Sequence record: PQ330092
DNA from: Escherichia phage JP4
DNA: 64,000 bases
Reading direction: 5' to 3' (one strand)
In this document: positions 1 through 20,174 of the stretch, piece by piece
How positions within the stretch are numbered: position 1 is the first letter of the stretch
Layout of the letters: each line of letters opens with the position of its first letter
The notes under the pieces: generated by a model
What the model was told of the DNA's origin: nothing
What the model saw: the letters and a program-made list of their open reading frames with translations, nothing else
Databases searched by the model: none
Made by a program: the position numbers and the translations under genes

Positions 1-60
1 CTGTATAATATTTTACATAGCACGGGGGAGCGGTTCCCCCTGGTAACTAAGGATAATCAA

Positions 61-360
61 ATGAAAATTGCAATCATCGCCCTGGCTTTATCTGTTTCCT
101 CTTTCGCTGTTAATGCGTCGTTAGATGTGAGTAGTGAAAAATTCATTCAGTGCACTGTTGCGATGACCAATGAAAGTACGGGCGAGATTGTTTTAAAGGA
201 TTTAGAGATCCAGCCACAAGCATTTAAAAACGGGCCGTTCCATGAAGAAGACGAAAACGGTAGCACAACCATTTATTATGATGCAAGTACTAAGCGTGGA
301 TCGGTCACGGTTATGGATACAGAGAAAGTAACGCACACAGGAGTAATTAACTGTTTATAA
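61..360 (+). CDS. Small secreted/periplasmic protein (99 aa) with N-terminal Sec-type signal peptide
   Basis: MKIAIIALALSVSSFAVNA followed by polar mature region; -10 TATAAT at 4-9, 5'UTR hairpin 24-40, SD AAGGA; terminator follows. Confidence 0.75.
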   Translation: MKIAIIALALSVSSFAVNASLDVSSEKFIQCTVAMTNESTGEIVLKDLEIQPQAFKNGPFHEEDENGSTTIYYDASTKRGSVTVMDTEKVTHTGVINCL

Positions 361-377
361 TCTAGTACTGAATCACT

Positions 378-406
378 AGCCCACCTTAAACAGTGGGCTT
401 TTTTGT
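378..406 (+). terminator. Rho-independent terminator (AGCCCAC stem, T-tract)
   Basis: AGCCCACCTTAAACAGTGGGCTTTTTTG; identical 40-bp terminator cassette at 1091-1130. Confidence 0.75.
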
Positions 407-448
407 TTTGTAGTACTGCATACTTTAAAAATAGTTTTAAAAAAGTAG

Positions 449-476
449 TTGACATTACCACAAAAAGGCGTAGAAT
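449..476 (+). promoter_or_regulatory. sigma70-like promoter TTGACA-16-TAGAAT
   Basis: Hexamers read directly; about 115-nt leader before 600..1082. Confidence 0.6.
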
Positions 477-599
477 GTATTACATCAAGACGGGGAGCAC
501 TAAGTAGACCGCCAGTAAGTCGAACGAAAAACTGGACACGTCGATAAAACTTTGATACACTAATAAACGTAAACTAAACTTTAATTGAGGATTTATAAA

Positions 600-1082
600 A
601 TGGCTAATGTAAAATCATTCCTGAAAGCACTGATTTCAAACGATACTGTTATTGCTGCTGAATTGCTGGCTGAACTGGATAACGATACAATGAAAGCGGT
701 ACGCAACAATTTTAACATTGCGTACAGTGAAGCTAAAGAACTGCAAGCCAAAAAGGTAGCAGAACTGGAAGAACAGAAAAAAGCCCGTGAAGCAGAACTA
801 CAAGCAACAATCGAAAGTATCCAGGCGGCAGTAGTTGGATTGGATCTGGAAGTGGTTGTAGAAATGGCACATAAAGCCCTGGCGGTTAAGTACGGTGAAG
901 ATAAGCCGGAATCTAAGCCTAAAAAATGGATTCAGGAACGCGTAGCGGTAGTACTGGACAACGGGGAAGAATATCTTATTCCGGTGCGTGGTAACTGCAT
1001 TGCGGTAGTACTGGACGCTATCAAAGAAAGCGGTATGACTCGCGAGGAATGGATCGAAGCTCATCGCAAAGTTGAAGCATAA
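600..1082 (+). CDS. Hypothetical protein (161 aa), N-terminal coiled-coil-like region
   Basis: Start refined to MANVKS after SD GAGGA; promoter 449-476 with long leader; terminator hairpin 1104-1130. Confidence 0.7.
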   Translation: MANVKSFLKALISNDTVIAAELLAELDNDTMKAVRNNFNIAYSEAKELQAKKVAELEEQKKAREAELQATIESIQAAVVGLDLEVVVEMAHKALAVKYGEDKPESKPKKWIQERVAVVLDNGEEYLIPVRGNCIAVVLDAIKESGMTREEWIEAHRKVEA

Positions 1083-1103
1083 CAATTAAAGTACTGAATC
1101 ACT

Positions 1104-1130
1104 AGCCCACCTTAAACAGTGGGCTTTTTT
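1104..1130 (+). terminator. Rho-independent terminator (copy of 378-406)
   Basis: Same hairpin + T-tract. Confidence 0.75.
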
Positions 1131-1283
1131 GTGTCTGTAGTATTCCAGTCCACCAGCACCGCCTAGAATCGATTCTAACGCATTAAACTGATTATCTGAT
1201 ACATCGCCCTAGCTGGTGGCGTTAAGGTCGTTAGAATGCGATTGAGAGCGTTTAAAGTATTTTGCAAAAAGTAATAAAAAGTA

Positions 1284-1311
1284 CTTGCACGATAAAGAGA
1301 TTAGCGTATAA
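1284..1311 (+). promoter_or_regulatory. sigma70-like promoter (AGTACTTGCA -35 region, TATAAT -10)
   Basis: Class shared by about 20 promoters in the early module. Confidence 0.65.
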
Positions 1312-1367
1312 TGTTTTACATCGAGAGGGGGAAACGGTTCTCCTTCCAAATCAAAGGAATCAAAACA

Positions 1368-1595
1368 ATGGCTATTATCATTACTCGCGTATCTGGTACT
1401 ACTGGCAACGAACAAGTAGTTGCAGTCATTACTAACAAGGCAGGTGCGGAATTGCAAAATGCAATGAATACCTGGGCCGTTAATGAGTTCGGTCAGTGGG
1501 CAAGTGTAGCATACATTGAAACCTATCAAGTGCCGTCGATTAGTTTAACTGATTTGGGCGTTGAGCGTATCCTTTGCCTGGATGAATTAAATTAA
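1368..1595 (+). CDS. Hypothetical small protein (75 aa), MAII-start family
   Basis: Start refined (track ATG lies in -10 box); promoter 1284-1311, hairpin, SD AAAGGAA. Confidence 0.7.
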   Translation: MAIIITRVSGTTGNEQVVAVITNKAGAELQNAMNTWAVNEFGQWASVAYIETYQVPSISLTDLGVERILCLDELN

Positions 1596-17773: not shown

Positions 17774-18004
17774 ATGACTAATATGTATATGACTGAAGTT
17801 AAAACCGTAAAAGATACTACCACGAATAAAACTACTTACTTACAGCGGATCTGTGGTGTATGGCAACGTATCAGCAAATCAAAGTACTTTAAATTAACAT
17901 CATATGCCAATCGTTCGGATTCATTCAGTACTGAAATAAAAGGTAATAAAGTACACCAATACGGCACTTATTATTATTATAGCCTGGACGCGATTGTAGT
18001 ATAA
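17774..18004 (+). CDS. Hypothetical protein (76 aa)
   Basis: Promoter about 17692-17720, hairpin, SD TGGAG. Confidence 0.7.
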   Translation: MTNMYMTEVKTVKDTTTNKTTYLQRICGVWQRISKSKYFKLTSYANRSDSFSTEIKGNKVHQYGTYYYYSLDAIVV

Positions 18005-18289
18005 GTAGTTTACAAATCTTTACAATTGCCAGTATTGACTTATTTTGTCAGTACTGGCATAATGTATTCATTGGCAGATAAGCCGTAGCCCATAGGGTGC
18101 GGAAGTGTATCTATAGAAAAAGTAGTTTAGTACAGTTACAATTGTGCACCCGGTGGGTTAGCTGTTGTCATGGGGTATATTATACCAGTACTGGATAGTG
18201 CTGTCAATACTTTTTTTTTACTATTCAGTACTGAAAACTATTTTTAAAAAGTACTTGCAAACTATGTTTAAAGGCGTATAATGTTTTAC

Positions 18290-18370
18290 ATCAGGACGGG
18301 GAACGAAATAAGTAACTTCCCGTTAAGTAGCCCAGGAGTAAGGCACACGAAAAACTCCCCTGATAAAATA
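18290..18370 (+). ncRNA. Conserved about 80-nt transcribed leader/candidate sRNA (copy of 8056-8131)
   Basis: About 85 percent identical to 8056-8131 with G-U compatible stem change. Confidence 0.3.
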
Positions 18371-18432
18371 GTTTGACAAATGTTTTTAAAAGCGTATAAT
18401 ACTTACATCAACTACTGAATGAGGGTTACAAA

Positions 18433-19044
18433 ATGAAAACTATCACTACTACTACTTTCGTTATGGATTTTTCTGAATTGAACGCAGAACAAAAAACGTC
18501 AGCTATCGAACTGGTTCGGGAACGTGAAAAAAACTCAAACGACAATTATTTTTCTGAAAGTGAAATTGAATACTATAAAGAAACAGTACTACCGGAATAT
18601 GGCATTAATGACGCTGAAATACAATTCAGTGGTTTTTGGTCCCAGGGTGACGGTGCATCAATCAGTACTGACCACGTTGACGCAGTGAAGTTTTTACGCA
18701 AGGTAAGAGCATTAACTAAGTATCGCTCAATCCGTCACCTGCTGAATGAAGATGATTTGGCGATGAGTGTAAAGCGTTCGCACTCCCACTACTCGCATGA
18801 GAATACTGTAAGCGGGTACATTGAATCGGCTTACACTGATTTAACCGCAAAACAAGAAACGTTAGTTAATGAGCTTGAGGAATTACTCACTGAAACTATT
18901 CGTGAATTGTCACGCAAGTTGTACCGTGATTTAGAGAATGCATATGAGGATCAATTCACTACTGAAAACATTACGGCACTGATTGAGGGTAACGAGTATC
19001 AATTCAATGTTATTGATGGCGTAGTGGAATCAATCGAATATTAA
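18433..19044 (+). CDS. Hypothetical acidic protein (203 aa)
   Basis: Tandem promoters and conserved leader element upstream; largest gene in the early module. Confidence 0.7.
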   Translation: MKTITTTTFVMDFSELNAEQKTSAIELVREREKNSNDNYFSESEIEYYKETVLPEYGINDAEIQFSGFWSQGDGASISTDHVDAVKFLRKVRALTKYRSIRHLLNEDDLAMSVKRSHSHYSHENTVSGYIESAYTDLTAKQETLVNELEELLTETIRELSRKLYRDLENAYEDQFTTENITALIEGNEYQFNVIDGVVESIEY

Positions 19045-19136
19045 TTTAAAAAGTACTTGCAAACTAAGTTTAAAAGCGTATAATACTTTATATCGAGAGC
19101 GGGAATAGTTCCCGCTACTAATGAGGAATACTACAA

Positions 19137-19301
19137 ATGAATACTTTTACCTTCGCTCAATTGAACGCCCTGGATGTATTGTCTGATGCTTTGCGGGATG
19201 CAACTGAAAGCGGTTTATTTGACAATGTTGACATTCACCCTGATGTAATTAATAATTTTTGTGATGCTATCGCAGAAGTACTGGAAGATCTAAAAAAATA
19301 A
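19137..19301 (+). CDS. Hypothetical small acidic protein (54 aa), not in ORF track
   Basis: Promoter about 19050-19080, hairpin GCGGGAATAGTTCCCGC, SD TGAGGAA then ATG. Confidence 0.55.
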   Translation: MNTFTFAQLNALDVLSDALRDATESGLFDNVDIHPDVINNFCDAIAEVLEDLKK

Positions 19302-19389
19302 TAGAAAGTACTTGCAATTAGTTTTTAGTACTGTATAATAGTTTACATAGAGGGGAGAAATGGTTCTCCCTGGTAATGAGGAAAATAAA

Positions 19390-19611
19390 ATGGCAAATAT
19401 CACTACTCTTTCCCAACTGGAAGCACTGGTTAAATCTATGCGGGAACATGCCGACAAAATCGGCGTACAAGATCCAGCCGTTTGCTTCTGCGACGAATTG
19501 AATGATGATACCCTGGTAATAGCAGAAGTCCAGGACGTTTCTAACTATTCCTCGCGTTACACTGGCGGCGTAGCAAATAAAGGTGACTTCTGTTTATACC
19601 TTACAAAATAA
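19390..19611 (+). CDS. Hypothetical protein (73 aa)
   Basis: Start refined to MANITT (track ATG is inside the 5'UTR hairpin); terminator 19626-19656 downstream. Confidence 0.65.
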   Translation: MANITTLSQLEALVKSMREHADKIGVQDPAVCFCDELNDDTLVIAEVQDVSNYSSRYTGGVANKGDFCLYLTK

Positions 19612-19625
19612 CAACGCGGGGAGAT

Positions 19626-19656
19626 AATAACTCCCCGTTACTTTTTCAGTACTGAA
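19626..19656 (+). terminator. Rho-independent terminator
   Basis: CGGGGAGATAATAACTCCCCG + TTACTTTTT. Confidence 0.65.
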
Positions 19657-19853
19657 TCATTTAATAGACGGATCTCGGCACCCGGTGGGTTAGTGACTGT
19701 TTCGTCTTGATGTAGTAATTATGCCAGTACTGGATGCACTTGTCAACAACTATTTTTCAAATACTTTTTATTAAAATACTTGCTAATAGTTTTTAAACGC
19801 GTATAATGTTTTGCATAGGGGAGCGGTTCCCCTGGTAACTAAGGAATAAGAAA

Positions 19854-20090
19854 ATGCTTGAACAAATCAAATCAACGTCTGCTAATGTAACGGGAACGGT
19901 ATCACACTTTATTGGTGATGAATCGCGGGGCGTTCCCTATTGTGCTGTACATGTAAACACTGAGGGTAACTACTGGTTTACGGTTTACGGATCATATTCA
20001 TTTGGACGGCCAGGGCATCAAAAAATTCTGGATAAAGTACAGCCAACGGGTAAAAATATCACGGCTGAAATGTTTTATAAAAAATCATAA
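19854..20090 (+). CDS. Hypothetical protein (78 aa)
   Basis: Promoter about 19782-19810, hairpin, SD AAGGAA. Confidence 0.7.
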   Translation: MLEQIKSTSANVTGTVSHFIGDESRGVPYCAVHVNTEGNYWFTVYGSYSFGRPGHQKILDKVQPTGKNITAEMFYKKS

Positions 20091-20174
20091 AGTACTTGAT
20101 AATAGTTTTTAGTACTGTATAATATTTTACATAGCACGGGGGAGCGGTTCCCCCTGGTAACTAAGGATAATCAA

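Follow-up and report, generated by a model that had tools for sequence, protein, structure and literature searches.

What is the short GC-rich hairpin that recurs directly behind presumed early promoters of Escherichia phage JP4, and what does it do there? We analyzed a 64,000-nucleotide stretch of the phage genome (record PQ330092, here called the window), in which a first, sequence-only reading had noted about 25 such hairpins within a 20-kb unit. We find that the hairpin belongs to a cassette, in which a promoter, the hairpin and a ribosome binding site precede a small gene. Compensatory changes maintain the hairpin as a structure; it is specific to one strand, and its position is locked to one promoter subclass. 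The cassette is confined to the terminal repeat of the phage, and cassettes form the junctions at which genes have been inserted, deleted or swapped, with different versions standing before the same gene in sister phages. The same architecture, built from unrelated stems, is common to other Rak2-like genera and to rV5-like and phAPEC8-like phages.

The window represents the left end of an Asteriusvirus jumbo coliphage. In megablast searches its first 20 kb match Asteriusvirus (121Q/PBECO4-like) phages of about 350-385 kb, with patchy coverage (30-66%) and 92-96% identity. The window contains an exact repeat with a period of 20114, such that positions 1-14905 are identical to 20115-35019, and 14906-20114 sits between both copies. 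When aligned to phage fEgEco12, window 14906-20114 corresponds to fEgEco12 1-5223, and window 1-14905 to fEgEco12 5224-20993, which ends where the fEgEco12 repeat ends. The direct terminal repeat of fEgEco12 is 20,993 bp long, and its ends have been verified by PhageTerm and restriction digests (PMC13070987). The alignment thus identifies our 20,114-bp unit as a terminal repeat in rotated view. The unit delimited earlier as 1-20114 is a real 20-kb repeat unit, but the true copy spans 14906-35019, and window 1-14905 is the final 14.9 kb of another repeat copy. By homology to fEgEco12, the physical left genome end maps to 14906 and the repeat end to 35019, with unique sequence from 35020 onward. 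At the junction 14905/14906 the last 14,905 bp of one repeat copy abut a complete 20,114-bp copy, and the boundary between repeat and unique sequence is found at 35019/35020. The two abutting copies look like a concatemer junction, or like a record that kept both copies and was then rotated.

A simple scan defined the order of elements in the cassette: a near-consensus sigma-70 promoter (TTGACA, TTGCAA or TTGCAT, 16 nt, TATAAT), then GTTTTACAT and, several bases on, a hairpin made of a G-rich arm, a loop of 3-8 nt and a C-rich arm, followed downstream by an A-rich spacer, a Shine-Dalgarno sequence and an ATG. The promoters are preceded by A/T runs, and 12 sites fit the consensus at 12/12 hexamer positions. 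With a covariance model built from 23 real units we locate 22 sites in each repeat copy, every one of them on the + strand, and none in window 35020-64000; the lowest-scoring match, at 26.9 bits, is the hairpin of cassette 8 (see the table for all positions). A 23rd, imperfect hairpin at 13609-13631, behind the promoter at 13570 (cassette 16), falls below detection by the model. It has a predicted folding energy of -9.2 kcal/mol, and similar hairpins (GGGCGGCA/TGCCGCC) are found in rV5-like and phAPEC8-like phages. Many hairpins are thus present, as the sequence-only reading had it, but its figure of about 25 comes down to 22-23. The three stem variants that it listed (GCGGGAA/TTCCCGC, GGGGGAG/CTCCCCC and GGGGAAA/TTTCCCC) all occur in the window.

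The stems are 6-9 bp long and G/C-rich, with predicted energies of -10 to -16 kcal/mol and the G-rich arm leading in 49/49 distinct stems, and they close loops of 3-9 nt; both the loop sequence and the upper-stem sequence vary freely. The stem begins 8-14 nt past the -10 hexamer (mean 11.7, standard deviation 1.5), which puts it 1-7 nt past the predicted +1, and the hairpin spans from about +2 to +8 through about +25 relative to the predicted +1. It had been proposed earlier that the hairpin follows some 7 nt after the -10 box; the link to the promoter stands, but that point is the predicted +1 rather than the foot of the stem. The A-rich spacer, strong Shine-Dalgarno sequence and start codon noted in the same reading are indeed seen, the ATG being located mostly 17-23 nt past the stem end (20.1 +/- 3.3 nt). 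The genes behind the cassettes are small (48-133 codons), mostly of unknown function and presumed early.

We quantified the association of hairpin and promoter in a scan that was anchored on promoters alone and did not assume a hairpin. In JP4 and related phages, a 5'-proximal GC hairpin follows 125 of 308 promoter-like sites (41%), whereas the rate in dinucleotide shuffles is 1.8% for the same segments and 3.5% for hairpin-bearing segments; none of 100 promoter-like sites on the opposite strand has one. The hairpin marks one class of promoter: among promoters with a 16-bp spacer it follows 83 of 114, and among those with 17 bp it follows 1 of 18 (p = 5e-8). It also respects the boundary of the repeat. 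In fEgEco12, all 24 hairpin promoters of the repeat region lie inside the repeat, with none in the next 5 kb and a single one in the 36 kb before the right-hand repeat copy. When IMG/VR was scanned with the promoter-only pattern TATAATGTTTTACAT, most matches were A/T-rich sequences that fit by chance, and only three jumbo-phage contigs were usable.

Is the hairpin itself under selection? When raw units were aligned with MAFFT, paired bases fell into different columns and RNAalifold then recovered only 3 pairs; because the arms were misaligned in this way, we used a loop-anchored alignment and a covariance model instead. The loop-anchored alignment comprises 49 distinct stems, with 9 nt on either side of the loop, and contains double changes in 9/9 pairs. 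Double-change cells number 80 vs 24 +/- 4 in shuffles, further pair types 29 vs 20 +/- 2, and the covariation score is 0.61 vs 0.245; none of 500 shuffles, a null that ignores kinship among phages, reaches the observed values. The model-based alignment of 103 distinct genomic sequences gives a consistent picture, with double changes in 8/8 pairs and 115 double-change cells vs 36 +/- 4, again with 0/500 shuffles as high. The share of paired cells, 89% in the first set and 93% in the second, is inflated in that both sets were selected or aligned with pairing in mind. Independent support for the structure comes from the promoter-anchored base-rate control described above and from the diversity of the stems. 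In phage RaK2 the stems read GGGGATACA/TGTATCCCT, GGGAATGAA/TTCATTCCC, AGGAGGT/ACCTCCT and GGGAAACA/TGTTTCCC, in Serratia phage BF GGGTAAGC/GCTTACCC and GACAGGAGA/TCTCTTGTC, and in one rV5-like and one phAPEC8-like phage GGGCGGCA/TGCCGCTC and GGCGGCA/TGCCGCC. These sequences are unrelated, and all of them are found at an equivalent position behind promoters of one kind. The earlier suggestion that selection acts on the structure, and not on a sequence-specific site, is thus strongly supported by compensatory double changes in all 8-9 pairs and by unrelated stems across genera, and the covariance model proposed there as a check gave double changes at every pair.

Several features indicate that it is the RNA strand that matters. 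Single internal stem mismatches on the sense strand are G.T in 9 cases vs A.C in 1, and an A.C mismatch is how a wobble pair on the other strand would appear; the excess of G.T thus points to RNA. In 10 units the sense strand has the more stable fold by a margin of more than 1.5 kcal/mol, and in 3 units the antisense strand does. All 150 covariance-model matches lie on the coding strand.

We compared the repeat with those of three sister phages. Ends of homology blocks fall inside cassettes in 14 of 25 cases, while cassettes make up 20% of the sequence (p = 1e-4), and several adjacent homology blocks overlap by precisely one cassette, as expected if recombination between cassettes adds and removes genes. 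Twelve gene-by-gene comparisons across sister phages reveal an upstream region that is not colinear: some show another stem or another cassette, and once a hairpin-less promoter, and others keep the same stem and differ by an insertion or deletion. Whole small genes are common to JP4 and the Vequintavirinae phage A7_1 (82-88% nucleotide identity) and to JP4 and Phapecoctavirus nepoznato (84% nucleotide identity). Such sharing indicates that genes flanked by cassettes have recently been exchanged horizontally between phage families. The small early genes with cassettes shared with A7_1 and nepoznato are found at window 1669-1954, 17029-17333 and 19842-20081; the partner phages are of roughly 145 kb and belong to Vequintavirinae and Stephanstirmvirinae.

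The closest known relatives of this arrangement are the PeSL (promoter-early stem-loop) cassettes, described by Arbiol et al. in 2010 and Comeau et al. in 2014. In the T4-like phages RB49 and phi1, a PeSL joins a strong sigma-70 promoter to a stem-loop of a G-tract and a C-tract, and PeSLs cluster in hyperplastic regions, in front of genes whose function is not known, and mediate modular shuffling (PMC2839356, PMC4122927). Our cassettes share with them the sigma-70-type promoter, the A/T-rich upstream sequence, the G-rich/C-rich stem-loop, the Shine-Dalgarno sequence and the small gene of unknown function, as well as their occurrence in dozens of copies in the most plastic part of the genome, at junctions of insertions, deletions and replacements. 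They differ in where the stem-loop sits. On inspection of the RB49 sequence, it is located between -35 and -10 or over -10 (e.g. TTGACAGGGGATCaccGATCCCCTATAAT), and being inside the promoter it is absent from that promoter's own transcript. In contrast, 22/22 hairpins in the window lie past the predicted +1 at a fixed distance, and hence in the 5' untranslated region. PeSL stem-loops are defined as lying within the promoter (between its boxes or over one of them) or upstream of its -35, at most just before the initiation site, and the window hairpins fall outside this definition. Our covariance model found no match in 40 kb of RB49, and unlike the T4-like PeSL hosts, the phage described here is a Rak2-like jumbo phage that carries its cassettes in a terminal repeat. 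The cassette is PeSL-like, with the stem-loop shifted into the transcript, and we found no description of it for Rak2-like, rV5-like or phAPEC8-like phages. In the literature searched (covering Asteriusvirus, 121Q, PBECO4, phAPEC6, CBB, fEgEco12, PA5oct and rV5), papers on the clade describe sigma-70-like promoters and terminal repeats, and no hairpin after promoters.

Four composite terminator/promoter units with the classical PeSL layout are also present in the window (3875-3910, 7895-7930, 11164-11199 and 13422-13457). Their stem-loop lies over the -35 element and has a T-tail: the -35 TTGAC is part of a 12-bp hairpin (AAAGGGATTGAC tccg GTCAGTCCCTTT), after which the sequence reads TTTGCTATTATAT. 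These units drive copies of a second promoter-driven, small-RNA-like element, of which there are about 10 copies with no obvious open reading frame, on the + strand near 3937, 5595, 7952, 11226, 13479 and 18089 and on the - strand near 19689, 18157, 16222 and 16006. Its core, about 20 nt past the start, reads CTA(A/G)CCCA(C/T)(A/C)GGGTGC, then ..GTGTATCT, and flanking 5-nt stretches may pair (AGATA/TATCT, AGACG/CGTCT). The element has no Rfam match, RNAalifold supports just a 4-bp mini-hairpin, and we regard it as a candidate small-RNA family.

Where would transcription of the cassettes start? A YAT motif is conserved 7-9 nt past the -10 element; the conserved CAT has its A 8 nt past -10, where host RNA polymerase may initiate as it does at the T7 A1 promoter. 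T7 A1 (NC_001604, start annotated at 498) has the geometry of the cassette, with GATACT, 7 nt and then A(+1); its first 10 transcribed bases (ATCGAGAGGG) are identical to those of several cassettes, and a 5'-terminal hairpin (-15.9 kcal/mol) is predicted for its leader. The T7 hairpin differs in being longer and branched (nt 2-36) and in occurring once rather than as a repeated cassette, and our covariance model gave no match to it.

Three promoters of the window (449-590, 8022-8150 and 18255-18385) have a leader of about 75 nt with a 36-nt motif that is common to the T7 A1-to-A2 interval and reads ATAAGTAGACAGCCTGATAAGTCGCACGAAAAACAGG in T7 and CTAAGTAGACCGCC-AGTAAGTCGAACGAAAAACTGG in the window. 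In two of the three, the leader is self-closing (AUCAGG...CCUGAU, -18 to -19 kcal/mol), and another promoter comes immediately after it, an order also seen in T7. A BLAST search with the long leader against phages missed T7, and the likeness was confirmed by direct alignment; the 36-nt motif also occurs in several Vequintavirinae phages. Transcripts from the PeSL promoters of RB49 (100-140 kb) begin with CATACCGAAACGAA or CATCAAGACGAGATACC, close to the CATCAAGACGAGAAC of some window units. From this likeness, the start regions of early promoters seem to be common to T4-like, T7-like, rV5-like and Rak2-like coliphages.

Other known systems share parts of the arrangement. The terminal redundancy of SPO1 and the pre-early region of T5 are host-takeover gene arrays in long terminal repeats, and like the JP4 repeat they contain many small genes, each with its own host-type promoter and ribosome binding site; to our knowledge, no conserved 5' hairpin module has been described for them. 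Short, stable hairpins near the 5' end, in which the pairing matters and the sequence is free, are found in the leader stabilizers of ompA, papA and T7 gene 10, the last of which is a 5' stabilizing hairpin that opens with G-runs like the window hairpin. Hairpins of the ompA type lie within 0-4 nt of the 5' end, whereas in the window 0-7 nt (typically 4-5) are predicted to be single-stranded. Work from the Belasco laboratory on 5'-terminal stabilizing stem-loops of ompA and papA is cited in PMC3997798. Rfam at gathering thresholds returned no match in the whole window.

A number of further candidates were rejected. None of the 22 hairpins is among the 30 terminator-like sites found, and their tails (ACTA, CTGG, CTAA) contain no T-tail, so that they do not qualify as intrinsic terminators; eight T-tailed terminator-like sites are found elsewhere in the repeat, before or over -35. 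A lambda-type nut site would have a boxA beside a 5-bp hairpin with a constant 5-nt loop; it was rejected, as there is no boxA in the repeat (CGCTCTT occurs just at 47438 and 40745, outside it) and loop length varies between 3 and 9 nt. At 6-9 bp the stems are too short for an RNase III site, which takes about two helical turns. An N4-type hairpin promoter was rejected in view of the canonical -35 and -10 elements that precede the hairpin, which itself lies past the start.

Our preferred explanation, which we advance tentatively and at slightly less than an even chance, is 5'-end protection or insulation of early mRNAs; 5' stabilization was among the roles that the sequence-only reading had called plausible, beside a regulator's RNA target and a processing signal. 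The hairpin would be located nearly at the 5' end of every message made from cassette promoters, where it would limit 5'-end-dependent decay (by RppH, then RNase E) and keep the purine-rich leader out of other pairings. The outcome would be a longer, standardized expression of whatever gene follows the cassette. Base-paired 5' ends slow RNase E (PMC3997798), which makes 5'-end protection the best-documented role for such an element, and the related phage PA5oct depends on the host polymerase (PMC7318152). Most genes of the repeat have no terminator, and in read-through RNA the hairpin therefore also lies about 60-100 nt past the preceding stop codon, where it could bar 3' exonucleases.

A number of observations weigh against protection of the 5' end. 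A classical ompA-type stabilizer needs its stem within 2-4 nt of the end; with a T7-A1-like +1, the window hairpins would leave 0-7 nt, usually 4-5 (mode 5), unpaired before the stem. The literature searched contains no start, half-life or 3'-end data for this phage clade, and the +1 position is thus one that we infer. RNase E gets past a simple stem-loop with ease when a free 5' end is available to it (PMC9943677), which also weakens the idea that the hairpin could act as an obstacle to RNase E scanning. Some 40% of promoter-like sites in this repeat lack a hairpin, so the hairpin is dispensable for early expression as such; these hairpin-less promoters have the same CATCAA start and a ribosome binding site. 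The 5' arm is purine-rich in 49/49 distinct stems, which stability alone does not explain. Finally, similar T-less G/C stem-loops of RB49 acted as strong terminators in a reporter assay (PMC2839356).

This last result raises the question of whether the hairpin is a PeSL-type terminator or attenuator, which would stop or damp upstream and perhaps part of its own transcription, such that the output of tandem promoters would not accumulate along the repeat. In its favor, the closest family (the PeSLs of RB49 and phi1) combines a stem-loop and a promoter of the kinds seen here, one T-tail-less stem-loop of RB49 cut lacZ expression as much as rrnB T1 did (PMC2839356), and most genes here have no other terminator. 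We nevertheless consider termination unlikely: with 22/22 hairpins past +1, the cassettes' own transcripts would end at about +25, and a signal that acts on upstream transcription only could sit anywhere, as in RB49, rather than at a promoter-relative position that is fixed to a standard deviation of 1.5 nt. The hairpins also have no T-tail, and the phage has canonical T-tailed terminators where they are needed, before or over -35. A similarly low probability attaches to the idea that the hairpin is the RNA target of a trans-acting factor, be it a phage or host protein or a polymerase-modifying factor, which could time early shut-off, protect the message during destruction of host mRNA or cause antitermination. 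Its restriction to one promoter class (83/114 vs 1/18) and to the terminal repeat would fit such a mark, as would the GGG...CCC base, the purine-rich 5' arm and the recurrent loops (TAG, ATGG, ACGG) that persist across genera; however, the variable loop length (3-9 nt) and the free loop and upper-stem sequences leave little for a specific reader, the repeat contains no boxA-like sequence, and three unrelated phage groups with the same architecture would have to share the factor. Somewhat less probable still is that selection acts on a purine-rich initial transcribed sequence required for rapid escape from a near-consensus promoter, as at T7 A1, with the 3' arm present just to fold away this Shine-Dalgarno-like stretch, which could otherwise be a ribosome decoy or pair elsewhere. 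The 5' arm is purine-rich in all 49 distinct stems and contains a Shine-Dalgarno-like tetramer in 32 of them, several cassettes share their first 10 transcribed bases with T7 A1, and the RaK2 hairpin AGGAGGT/ACCTCCT pairs what we take to be a perfect Shine-Dalgarno sequence with the 16S anti-Shine-Dalgarno core. Yet hairpin-less promoters of the repeat with starts that are not G-rich (ATCAACCACTG...) have equally good -35 and -10 elements, and several 5' arms (GCGGGAA, GTGGGGAA, GGGCGGCA) are not Shine-Dalgarno-like.

Could the hairpin have no function of its own and simply be a passenger, with duplication and recombination accounting for the spread of the cassette? Cassettes have clearly been copied and swapped as blocks, but pairing has been kept despite complete turnover of the stem sequence between genera, and the position has been kept as well; given this covariation we regard a mere passenger as very unlikely. 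We assign the lowest probability to an element acting at the DNA level, whether a cruciform or a palindromic operator bound by a dimeric repressor, located just past the start site. The perfect inverted repeat does occupy the classical operator position (+5 to +25), but the half-sites covary with no kept consensus, their spacing ranges from 3 to 9 bp, and the wobble-type G.T mismatches are specific to the sense strand. For these reasons we rejected a protein-binding DNA operator, an option that the sequence-only reading had included and that the covarying half-sites, 3-9-nt loops and 9 vs 1 mismatch count disfavor, and we interpret the hairpin as an RNA structure. A more speculative and rather improbable extension is that the hairpin is a self-mark, by which a phage-made or injected factor would spare the transcripts of the terminal repeat, or later switch them off, amid host mRNA decay or polymerase reprogramming. 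If true, the cassette would be a portable 'immediate-early' tag, and this would explain its trade among unrelated coliphage families.

The cassette is a defined and testable regulatory module in the terminal repeat. In Rak2-like jumbo phages this is the region that is understood least, and its roughly 50 small genes presumably serve host takeover. If the hairpin, a compact element free in sequence and placed behind very strong promoters, stabilizes or insulates early mRNAs, it would explain the uniform, high early expression of horizontally acquired genes of unknown function and would represent a ready-made expression part for E. coli. The PeSL idea that regulatory cassettes are a substrate for shuffling, which came from T4-like phages, is extended here to jumbo, rV5-like and phAPEC8-like phages. 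The comparison with RB49 indicates that the stem-loop can shift from the promoter interior into the transcript, which sharpens the question of what role it plays.

Table. Position of the terminal repeat and of the hairpin cassettes in the window. Hairpins are written as 5' arm, loop (lower case) and 3' arm where given.
Feature	Span	Strand	Promoter	Hairpin	ATG	Remarks
Direct terminal repeat, complete copy	14906..35019	+				20,114 bp; all cassettes inside; from exact repeat and fEgEco12 alignment
Cassette 1	20096..20177	+	-35 20096, -10 20118-20123	20138-20154 (GGGGGAG cgg TTCCCCC)	20175	
Cassette 1, truncated copy	1-63	+		24-40		
Cassette 2	1285..1370	+	1285-1312	1325-1346 (GAGGGGGAA acgg TTCTCCTTC, two G.U)	1368	again at +20114
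Cassette 3	1604..1683	+	1604-1631	1644-1663 (GGGGAGAA atga TTCTCCCC)	1681	again at +20114
Cassette 4	3188..3269	+	3188-3215	3228-3247 (GGGGAG aaatagta CTCCCC)	3267	again at +20114
Cassette 5	3417..3497	+	3417-3444	3457-3476	3495	again at +20114
Cassette 6	4004..4085	+	4004-4031	4045-4063 (AGGGGAAA cgg TTTCCCCT)	4083	again at +20114
Cassette 7	4439..4523	+	4439-4466	4479-4498	4521	again at +20114
Cassette 8	6547..6624	+	6547-6575 (TTGCAT-17-TATAGT)	6586-6604 (AGGGGAA acatc TTCCCCT)	6622	again at +20114
Cassette 9	7168..7247	+	7168-7195	7208-7227	7245	again at +20114
Cassette 10	8748..8834	+	8748-8775	8790-8808 (GAGGGGAA tgg TTCCCCTC)	8832	again at +20114
Cassette 11	11294..11376	+	11294-11321	11335-11354 (AGGGGGAA acgg TTCTCCCT, one G.U)	11374	again at +20114
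Cassette 12	11599..11682	+	11599-11626	11639-11657	11680	again at +20114
Cassette 13	12148..12229	+	12148-12175	12188-12208 (GCGGGGGAA tag TTCTCCCGC)	12227	again at +20114
Cassette 14	12483..12560	+	12483-12510	12521-12539 (GGGGGAG atatc CTCCCCC)	12558	again at +20114
Cassette 15	13123..13208	+	13123-13150	13163-13183	13206	again at +20114
Cassette 16 (variant)	13570..13654	+	13570-13598 (TTGACA-17-GATAAT)	about 13609-13631, imperfect (GGGCGGCAATGGTGCGACGGCCC)	13652	
Cassette 17	13992..14076	+	13992-14019	14032-14053 (GAGGGGGAA atgg TTCTCCCTC)	14074	again at +20114
Cassette 18	16554..16639	+	16554-16581	16595-16613 (AGCGGGAA cac TTCCCGCT)	16637	
Cassette 19	17014..17094	+	17014-17041	17053-17073 (GGTGGGGAA tag TTCCCCACT)	17092	
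Cassette 20	17694..17776	+	17694-17721	17736-17752 (GCGGGAA ctc TTCCCGC)	17774	
Cassette 21	19057..19139	+	19057-19084	19098-19116	19137	
Cassette 22	19312..19392	+	19312-19339	19352-19371	19390	
Cassette 23	19780..19856	+	19780-19807	19816-19834 (TAGGGGAG cgg TTCCCCTG)	19854	

The repeat contains a second class of equally strong promoters without a hairpin, with starts at 1913, 4753, 5015, 5538, 6130, 8409, 9178 and 18373. Many of them have a 17-bp spacer and (C/T)ATAAT, and their leader (ACTTACATCAAC...) runs directly into the ribosome binding site.

The repeat contains about 20 times more copies of the palindrome AGTACT than expected, with 133 sites (14906-35019) vs 6.5 +/- 2.4 in dinucleotide shuffles, and our literature search found no description of this. 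It is also frequent in the unique region (65 sites in 35020-64000). The early regions of Kae01, RaK2 and Serratia BF have 5.2-6.5 sites per kb, the sequence near the right end of fEgEco12 has 3.9, and rV5-like and phAPEC8-like loci have just 0.1-0.4. In promoters, AGTACT is found over the -35 element (AGTACTTGCAA) and just before the -10 element (CAGTACTGTATAAT), about 20 bp apart, but just 44 of 133 sites lie in promoters.

In the low-GC unique region we found two families of diverged direct repeats, one at 38240-38734 (226 nt, 2 copies, 76% identity) and one at 52184-54240 (218 nt, 3 copies, 62-78% identity). Both are probably paralogous small genes.

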